Part shown: positions 2,111 to 2,272 of the stretch, one piece after another
How the letters are laid out: every line of letters begins with the position of its first letter
Numbering within the stretch: the first letter of the stretch is position 1
Virus record (IMG/VR): IMGVR_UViG_3300033066_001917
Location: 1 to 64,000 of that record
Direction: 5' to 3' (one strand)
Origin: a virus
Lineage: Duplodnaviria > Caudoviricetes
DNA: 64,000 bases
The notes under the pieces: generated by a model
What the model saw: the letters and a program-made list of their open reading frames with translations, nothing else
What the model was told of the DNA's origin: nothing
Database searches by the model: none
Made by a program: the position numbers and the translations under genes

Positions 2111-2272
2111 CGCAATCTGGTAGGGACTTTCACCCTACTACCTAACCCTAATGGGGTCTGCTTTCTTTCCGTCCTACGCGGGATGAACCTTCCCGGGTGT
2201 CCACCCCGCGGGGTTTCGGAGAGAGTCACCTAACGTAGTTTCCTACGTCATGACTCATAAGCTACAGATTGC
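2111..2272 (-). ncRNA. tRNA-like RNA with 95-nt structured insert in the D loop
   Basis: 8-bp acceptor GCAATCTG/CAGATTGC, TA, D stem GCTT/AAGC, GACCC-CATTA-GGGTT arm, 6-bp T stem with TGAAAGT loop; abuts the CCA of tRNA-Glu. Confidence 0.75.

Follow-up and report, generated by a model that had tools for sequence, protein, structure and literature searches.

Extra stable RNAs have been known in phage transfer RNA (tRNA) clusters for fifty years and, to our knowledge, none has ever been assigned a function. The phage T5 tRNA region specifies RNA1, annotated as a “tRNA-like stable RNA with unknown functions,” along with RNAI, RNAIII, and RNA2H (GenBank AY543070). In phage T4, RNAC and RNAD are small stable RNAs of the tRNA region whose biological roles are unknown (PMC3014915, PMC9697503). 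Here, we describe a new design within this poorly understood group. The element is a 162-nucleotide (nt) RNA gene on the minus strand at positions 2111–2272 of the window, by which we mean the whole stretch of DNA analyzed, positions 1 to 64,000 of IMG/VR virus record IMGVR_UViG_3300033066_001917. The record derives from a giant wastewater/river phage; its contig spans 200 kilobases (kb) and is estimated to be 38% complete. The element is real, conserved, architecturally novel, and, so far, narrowly distributed.

Like the element, the T5 stable RNAs are short (106–172 nt) and lie between tRNA genes on the tRNA strand. Moreover, T5 RNAIII abuts tRNA-His without a spacer, as the element abuts tRNA-Glu. 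The element thus has the layout of phage tRNA-region stable RNAs: a non-tRNA gene in a tRNA cluster, on the tRNA strand, and abutting a tRNA. These RNAs represent a kind, not a homologous family. Specifically, a covariance model built from the element's single sequence and fold (called R1, and run with filters off on T5) scores T5 RNA1 at 3.2 bits (E 2.5); the folds differ and there is no homology. By fold and sequence, T5 RNA1 looks like a class II tRNA in which the anticodon/variable region, rather than the D loop, was remodeled. T4 RNAC and RNAD, also called species 1 and 2 RNAs, can be likened to the element by description, and nothing suggests a D-loop domain or a 14-base-pair (bp) stack in either.

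The element begins where a tRNA ends. ARAGORN places tRNA-Glu(UUC), including its encoded CCA, at 2273–2347 on the minus strand (46.5 bits with the Rfam tRNA model), and G1 of the element (2272) is the very next base after that CCA, a zero-nucleotide junction. All features below lie on the minus strand, and element position equals 2273 minus the window coordinate. The 8-bp acceptor stem, every pair of which is invariant, joins positions 1–8 (GCAAUCUG, 2265–2272) to positions 154–161 (CAGAUUGC, 2112–2119), as judged from the fold and from comparison of variants. A discriminator G (2111) follows, with no CCA after it. Next to the 5′ acceptor strand, a UA linker (the U8/A9 equivalents) leads into the 5′ strand of the D stem, GCUU (2259–2262), which R1 aligns to the D stems of T5 tRNAs, and then into an A equivalent to A14. 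The 3′ strand of the D stem, AAGC (2160–2163), is preceded by AAGA, containing the A21 equivalent. A single A separates the D stem from the anticodon-arm equivalent (2144–2158), a 5-bp stem, GACCC/GGGUU, capped by the 5-nt loop CAUUA. Opening the closing pair of this stem produces a 7-nt loop, CCAUUAG. A 5-nt variable loop, AGGUA, and a T arm with a 6-bp stem and the loop UGAAAGU occupy 2120–2143.

The D loop houses a domain of its own. In the minimum-free-energy (MFE) fold, the 95-nt insert (positions 15–109, 2164–2258) forms two hairpins. Hairpin 1 (positions 17–50, 2223–2256) has 14 bp, a 2-nt purine bulge, and the loop GAAA. Hairpin 2 (positions 53–105, 2168–2220) has a 4-bp base, UCCG/CGGA, followed by an internal loop, a 12-bp stem, and the 10-nt loop ACCCGGGAAG. 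That loop includes the palindrome CCCGGG, which is invariant in all variants; we speculate that it could permit kissing dimers. A preliminary description of this DNA had proposed the start directly after the tRNA-Glu CCA, the 8-bp acceptor stem, the 6-bp T stem, the 4-bp D stem, the 5-nt loop, the missing CCA, and the two-hairpin D-loop domain, all of which the ARAGORN coordinates, the sequence, and the MFE fold reproduce. That description also capped the long hairpin with GAAA. The cap is present in the window; in a natural variant it is GACG, and hence it is not a conserved feature.

The tRNA frame is evident throughout the core. With canonical tRNA (RF00005), the element shares the order of the four arms, the UA linker, the 4-bp D stem, A14/A21, and the 5-nt variable loop. 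As read from sequence and fold, U8, A14, A21, G10–C25, a purine at 26, G53–C61, and U54/A58 are present, and the variable loop carries G45/G46 in tRNA numbering. When R1 is applied to the T5 tRNA region, canonical tRNAs rank first, aligned over model positions 1–162 with the insert skipped. The top match is tRNA-Lys (16.3 bits, E 0.0016), followed by tRNA-Ala and tRNA-His. We take the role of this frame to be that of a scaffold. The 162-nt gene is the sole R1 match in the 200 kb.

In contrast, the parts that serve decoding, namely the anticodon loop, the 12-bp stack, and the elbow, are all altered, while those that serve folding and processing are kept. Unlike canonical tRNA, the element has a 95-nt D loop without G18–G19, a 5-nt anticodon loop, and no CCA. 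Pseudouridine 55–C56, U33, and the 7-nt anticodon loop are likewise missing: T-loop positions 55/56 are G and A, and position 33 is C if the anticodon-like closing pair opens. The acceptor/T stack is 12 bp in tRNAs and 13 bp in tRNA-Sec; in the element it is 8 + 6 = 14 bp. tRNA detectors fail. Searches of stretches of 601 and 168 nt with RF00005 produce no match on the element at the gathering threshold or at E values as high as 10, and ARAGORN makes no call with intron mode on or off. Across Rfam, no family matches the element to E = 10, including transfer-messenger RNA (tmRNA), YrlA, mascRNA, self-cleaving ribozymes, and introns. One weak group II D1–D4 match (E 0.17) lies below threshold; it is driven by the T arm of tRNA-Glu together with the generic UGAAA T-loop hairpin. 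Three features, the closed loop of the anticodon arm, the excessive stack length, and the missing CCA, argue that the element is kept out of translation. With the 5-nt loop, the 14-bp stack, G55/A56, and the silence of both Rfam and ARAGORN, the evidence bears out the non-decoding role proposed in the preliminary description, and we regard such a role as very probable.

An opposing possibility is that the element decodes as a genuine tRNA once an intron-like insert in its D loop has been cut out and the ends rejoined, for example to read AAU with the anticodon AUU. Unexplained inserts in tRNA genes have been published for Lak megaphages, in which the highly conserved, “enigmatic” tRNA introns, of unknown fate, emerged when oversized tRNA genes were predicted anew under tRNAscan eukaryote settings, and tRNA type and anticodon were assigned (Devoto et al. 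2019, PMC6784885). In the element, unlike the Lak cases, the anticodon loop and the elbow are also abnormal, and removal of the insert restores no tRNA. Specifically, in-silico deletion of hairpin 1, of hairpin 2, of both, or of the whole D loop yields no ARAGORN call at the default or 90% setting, and only a weak “Asn(att)” call appears at the 80% setting after removal of one or both hairpins. The preliminary description had named excision to a conventional tRNA as an outcome that would overturn its own interpretation; in silico, excision gives no such tRNA at the default or 90% setting. In favor of splicing, the phage encodes an Rnl1-type RNA ligase (58228–59454), and the opened loop CCAUUAG has 7 nt with a purine at 37, the sole natural change there being A to G. 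The discriminator G with U35 and U36 recalls what we take to be the Asn identity set. However, we know of no Asn tRNA in nature with A34, and a normal tRNA-Asn(GUU) already exists in the genome. Beyond the missing GG in the residual D loop and the bases at 33, 55, and 56, the 14-bp stack exceeds that of any known tRNA. The 200 kb of this incomplete genome yielded no splicing endonuclease domain, and insert and frame are equally conserved, which would be unusual if the insert were a discarded spacer. We consider splicing to a decoding tRNA very unlikely. Nor does a parent tRNA stand out: the similarity between the insert-deleted core and the phage's own tRNAs is about that of unrelated tRNAs among themselves.

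The fold is far stronger than composition predicts. Its MFE is −72.8 kcal/mol, compared with a mean of −47.4 (standard deviation 4.2) for 200 dinucleotide-preserving shuffles (z = −6.1), none of which folds as well. Only 13 of 4942 segments of 162 nt, taken from both strands of the 200 kb, fold as well as the element, and most of these come from a region of 64–75% G+C, versus 54% for the element. Folding of the opposite (plus) strand is 8 kcal/mol weaker, and the element's structure includes five G–U pairs, which fits an RNA read in the direction of the tRNAs. Folding of the flanks is ordinary (z = +0.9 for 2047–2110 and z = −0.7 for 1558–1764), so the element's coordinates delimit a discrete fold. 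As a separate observation, the 64–75% G+C island lies near 53.4–55.0 kb of the window. Other 162-nt segments combine exceptional folding with moderate G+C, namely 17996–18157 (minus strand), 34021–34182 (plus strand), and G000 145234–145395 (plus strand), at −84.9, −77.5, and −73.8 kcal/mol, respectively; these may be structured RNAs.

Relatives of the element were reached via the 144-amino-acid (aa) protein encoded upstream of tRNA-Glu, for which a search of 5.8 billion proteins revealed a single close relative, at 63% identity. Eight loci of that relative were fetched. Seven of them possess a 162-nt homolog of a type called L004 (184 bits) that starts directly after the CCA of tRNA-Glu, and the eighth ends before the element's expected position. 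A third variant, X4, comes from a sludge metagenome contig. L004 differs from the window element at 6 of 162 positions: positions 33 and 34, which convert the hairpin 1 loop from GAAA to GACG, and C62G, A89G, C93A, and C149U. X4 differs at 2 of 162 positions, C62G and A124G. C62G, in hairpin 2, is unpaired and can add a G–U pair. A89G turns U–A into U–G in hairpin 2 and C149U turns G–C into G–U in the T arm, with the pair kept in both cases. C93A breaks one G–C pair in hairpin 2, and A124G changes the anticodon-like loop from CAUUA to CAUUG. In all, four of the seven variable sites are unpaired, two are pair-keeping, and one is pair-breaking; hairpin 2 contains three of the seven. Of 55 pairs, 52 are invariant, two undergo one-sided changes and still pair, and one is broken, so that pairing is intact for 55/55 in the window and 54/55 in L004. 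The reference structure is optimal or co-optimal in all three variants.

No feature of the locus is better conserved than the element, the three neighboring tRNAs included. Between the window and L004, identity is 96.3% for the element, 94.7% for tRNA-Glu, 93.4% for tRNA-Ile-2, and 85.7% for tRNA-Ile-1. The non-coding segment 1558–1764 is 94.7% identical, the trailer that follows the element (2047–2110) 89.2%, the 46-nt upstream spacer 57.6%, and the upstream coding sequence 69.6% in nucleotides, falling to 50% at third codon positions. Conservation at the locus follows features, not blocks. The preliminary description held the element to be functional, and the 96.3% identity, set against 50% at upstream third codon positions, supports this view, as does retention of the CCA junction. 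The element is, with high confidence, a selected functional RNA. Phage tRNA arrays do hold decayed copies and small inserts, and the element could in principle be a dead tRNA gene, broken by inserted palindromic DNA and carried along by linkage to useful tRNAs. However, a dead gene would not be expected to be the best conserved feature of a locus in which neutral sites are about 50% diverged, nor to retain essentially all of its pairs, and no second copy of the insert occurs in the genome. An overlapping 54-aa open reading frame (ORF) that starts with GTG is not coding either: all of the L004 changes are non-synonymous in it and a 1-nt indel shifts its end, and we rejected it as a gene. Decay is thus highly improbable.

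The manner of conservation is informative. As an internal control in the same two genomes, tRNA-Ile-1 displays three compensatory double changes in 20 pairs, and the element displays none in 55. At the tRNA-Ile-1 rate, approximately eight would be predicted in the element. Thus, its stems are held in sequence and not only in pairing, which we interpret as a sign of sequence-specific recognition or of dense tertiary contacts. The preliminary description had stated that a lack of compensatory changes in homologs would count against a functional RNA. None is indeed seen, yet the test is uninformative given that 52 of the 55 pairs never vary. Because the GAAA cap is not conserved, contact between a GNRA tetraloop and its receptor is not essential.

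Downstream, the element is followed by the 64-nt trailer (2047–2110), which is unstructured and carries a 1-nt indel in relatives, and then by a 93-aa ORF (1765–2046) with no Pfam or PHROG match. Besides the window, a river metagenome contig has this ORF. It is missing from X4 and from the L004 lineage as an exact, ORF-sized indel of 278 nt, with the flanking non-coding sequence conserved, and it resembles a small gene, mobile or optional, inserted into the RNA operon. We considered the element as a leader of this ORF and rejected that assignment because the ORF is precisely absent from two lineages that keep the element. The non-coding segment 1558–1764 lies beyond the ORF and ends at the 5′ end of a tRNA-Ile; its last ∼150 nt are nearly invariant. 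Introns and similar elements typically carry an ORF inserted into a structured RNA. The element may be one domain of a larger RNA of ∼430 nt that includes both flanks and is interrupted here by a mobile ORF. Consistent with this idea, the conserved flanks are contiguous in L004 and X4, and they are 89–95% identical to those of L004. In opposition, the flanks fold unexceptionally alone or joined (z = +0.9, −0.7, and −1.0), the uninterrupted L004 version has no Rfam match, and the element closes on itself via its 8-bp terminal helix. Furthermore, the trailer has, in addition to its indel, the highest substitution density in the RNA block. We judge a larger RNA to be quite unlikely.

The interpretation that best accommodates these findings, and one that we favor with modest confidence, is that the element is a stable RNA that uses a tRNA frame without decoding and is processed from a tRNA transcript. 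The notion is that the element would be co-transcribed with tRNA-Glu in a minus-strand tRNA operon. One ribonuclease P (RNase P) cut at A76|G1 would then generate both the mature CCA end of tRNA-Glu and the 5′ end of the element. Release by RNase P at the CCA|G1 junction strikes us as reasonably probable. The tRNA core, comprising the acceptor/T stack, D stem, U8–A14, variable loop, and T-loop motif, would provide folding, processing, and nuclease resistance. The 95-nt two-hairpin domain, which would replace the G18–G19 corner and project from or rebuild the elbow, would be the specific working part. The elbow of tRNA is touched by RNase P, T-box leaders, the ribosomal L1 stalk, and several enzymes. 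If so, the element would serve not as an amino-acid carrier but as a mimic, decoy, or adaptor. Conservation of the stems in sequence suggests a sequence-specific partner, which could be a tRNA-handling protein or another RNA. Our preferred guess, offered tentatively, is that the element is a mimic or decoy for a tRNA-binding factor.

Several considerations weigh against the proposal of a processed, stable RNA. Its transcription, the RNase P processing that would set its ends, and its stability are all steps that we infer. Bacterial RNase P measures the acceptor/T stack and elbow on tRNA, and the 14-bp stack and rebuilt elbow differ from what it measures, so a cut exactly at G1 is not assured. 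No compensatory base change occurs among the element's 55 pairs, and the secondary structure thus rests on thermodynamics and on pair-keeping single changes. The known variants number only three, all near-identical, and mosaic exchange of an RNA cassette between phages could inflate their identity. Finally, the segment at 1558–1764 is ∼95% conserved without a notable fold, which means that high conservation here is not unique to folded RNA.

The same junction that suggests RNase P release could signify something simpler. The element could be solely a cis-acting processing module, an RNase P substrate that defines the exact CCA end of tRNA-Glu or punctuates the operon, with no function in trans. 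The zero-nucleotide CCA junction recurs in all loci long enough to include it, and tRNA-like punctuation elements occur in mitochondrial transcripts, in the MALAT1 mascRNA, and in the tRNA–microRNA units of murine herpesvirus 68 (MHV68). A plain minihelix or an ordinary tRNA would, however, suffice for that purpose, the other tRNAs of this genome manage with short spacers, and a mere cleavage signal has no need of a 95-nt domain that is nearly invariant. We find a processing module unlikely.

Fusion of a tRNA-like core to a non-tRNA functional domain has parallels. tmRNA and YrlA share this arrangement with the element. In both, the extra module replaces the anticodon arm, whereas the element keeps a closed anticodon arm and carries its module in the D loop. 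The YrlA termini, moreover, lie at the Ro-binding stem, unlike those of the element. Neither the tmRNA (RF00023) nor the YrlA (RF02553) model matches the element, no Ro (TROVE) gene was found in the 200 kb, and the phage possesses a separate, normal tmRNA at 39905–40278. In the engineered “tRNA scaffold” RNAs of Ponchon and Dardel, a tRNA body reportedly folds, processes, and protects a foreign structured RNA. Those scaffolds are artificial, with the cargo in the anticodon stem; the element is a natural gene with its module in the D loop. A large survey of candidate structured viral RNAs mentions tRNA-like candidates and nothing of the element's design (PMC10690425).

Sequence homologs beyond the L004 and X4 lineages were not encountered. 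Megablast and blastn against 50,697 phage records gave matches to the tRNA-Glu part alone, and an IMG/VR search for loci related through two flanking proteins returned none. Exact and degenerate DNA patterns run against IMG/VR viral contigs, Joint Genome Institute (JGI) metagenome contigs, and GTDB species-representative genomes revealed no further sequence homolog; the pattern matches L002, L003, L012–L025, L032, and L033 are chance, and were rejected by R1 and by eye. Ten contigs encoding six distant relatives of the 144-aa protein likewise contain no sequence homolog. Within the 200 kb, there are no repeats of the insert and no paralogs of the element; a marginal 18-nt match at 35754–35771 was rejected as not tRNA-like.

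One RNA of the same design was nonetheless found with R1, again with filters off, within a tRNA array on a distantly related phage contig that encodes a 40% identical homolog of the 144-aa protein. This 117-nt RNA (L026:5192–5308) has an 8-bp acceptor stem, a UA linker, a 4-bp D stem, and a 50-nt D loop, 46 nt of which are skipped in the R1 alignment. Like the element, it has AAGA before the 3′ strand of the D stem. Its anticodon-like loop is CCUGGAG, which can close to 5 nt, its variable loop is AGGUC, and its T loop is UGCAACU. A CC-NNN-AG loop is thus common to both RNAs. The fold of the L026 RNA is unexceptional (z = −1.0), and this RNA is a lead for a class, not proof of one. We also scanned ∼0.7 megabases (Mb) of natural sequence (∼1.4 Mb on both strands) and 1.07 Mb of shuffled sequence with a strict cloverleaf descriptor. 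In natural sequence it finds only canonical tRNAs, the element's homologs, and the L026 RNA, and in shuffled sequence it finds nothing. When applied to two other huge phages (40-kb tRNA regions) and to the T5 region, the descriptor picked up no tRNA-like RNA with an expanded D loop.

We speculate that the element belongs to a broad, uncatalogued class of phage tRNA mimics acting in trans on a host factor that recognizes tRNA shape, although we consider this doubtful at present. The L026 RNA hints at what the design of such a class might be: a D-loop domain that rebuilds the elbow, an anticodon loop closed as CC-NNN-AG, and an acceptor stem that is 8 bp in both examples.

Other observations concern tRNA-like sequences in these phages. 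The L026 RNA lies in a 2.5-kb gene-free stretch (L026:3230–5814) that is dense in T-arm motifs, most of them uncalled by ARAGORN. Just before it is a tRNA-like gene with a ∼40-nt insert in the anticodon loop that ends in ACC two bases before the next RNA. Outside the window, an otherwise canonical tRNA-Met(CAU) at G000:C1:138995–139067 (minus strand) has the T loop UGCAAGU, with the G55 that is common to the element and its L026 look-alike. In the anticodon stem of tRNA-Glu, the 31–39 pair is non-standard in both lineages, C/U in the window (2273–2347) and A/C at L004:6496–6570. In the 200 kb, there are 38 tRNA calls, including two dubious intron-mode calls and a CUA suppressor. The latter, at G000:C1:94376–94449 (minus strand) and likewise outside the window, is an amber suppressor labeled “Pyl” by ARAGORN, and the phage may read TAG as sense in some genes.

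The neighborhood offers few clues to function. The 144-aa protein upstream of tRNA-Glu (2394–2828, minus strand) belongs to an unannotated family of at least 55 diverged members, as a HMMER search returned 55 distant relatives, and it matches no Pfam or PHROG family. Its AlphaFold model, which is very confident (predicted local distance difference test score, 96.8), is mostly helical with short terminal strands and has no Foldseek match in the PDB; it provides no clue to the role of the RNA. A promoter and terminator scan revealed nothing useful near the element. Neither the splicing endonuclease (tRNA_int_endo) nor a CCA-adding enzyme was found in the 200 kb of the incomplete genome. Contigs from two wastewater RNA libraries, X9 and X10, contain the tRNA-Glu body and the tRNA-Ile pair; they do not cover the element region and are uninformative about its expression. 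In the contigs with tRNA-Glu, the tRNA body is 100% identical but the flanks are unrelated, so these contigs come from another genome, possibly that of the host. The Rnl1-type ligase gene (minus strand), of the T4 type, points to a tRNA repair capacity that may bear on tRNA-targeting host defenses. Finally, a 638-aa ORF at 37576–39492 (plus strand) has a C-terminal ThyX domain and a weak LAGLIDADG match in its middle, and is possibly a thymidylate synthase interrupted by an intein or endonuclease.

Among the stable RNAs of phage tRNA clusters, the element is a clean, well-delimited case, with sequence constraint above that of the adjoining tRNAs. Should it prove to be only a processing module, it would be a modest curiosity. 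If, by contrast, it truly mimics the ligand of a host factor that handles tRNA, it would provide a testable handle on an old question and on phage–host conflict at the level of RNA. It would also furnish a natural precedent for tRNA scaffolds that carry their cargo in the D loop. If a class of such mimics exists, candidate targets would include a tRNA-cleaving defense nuclease, RNase P, and a modification or quality-control enzyme, and these RNAs would represent an RNA-based tool for counter-defense or for takeover of the host.

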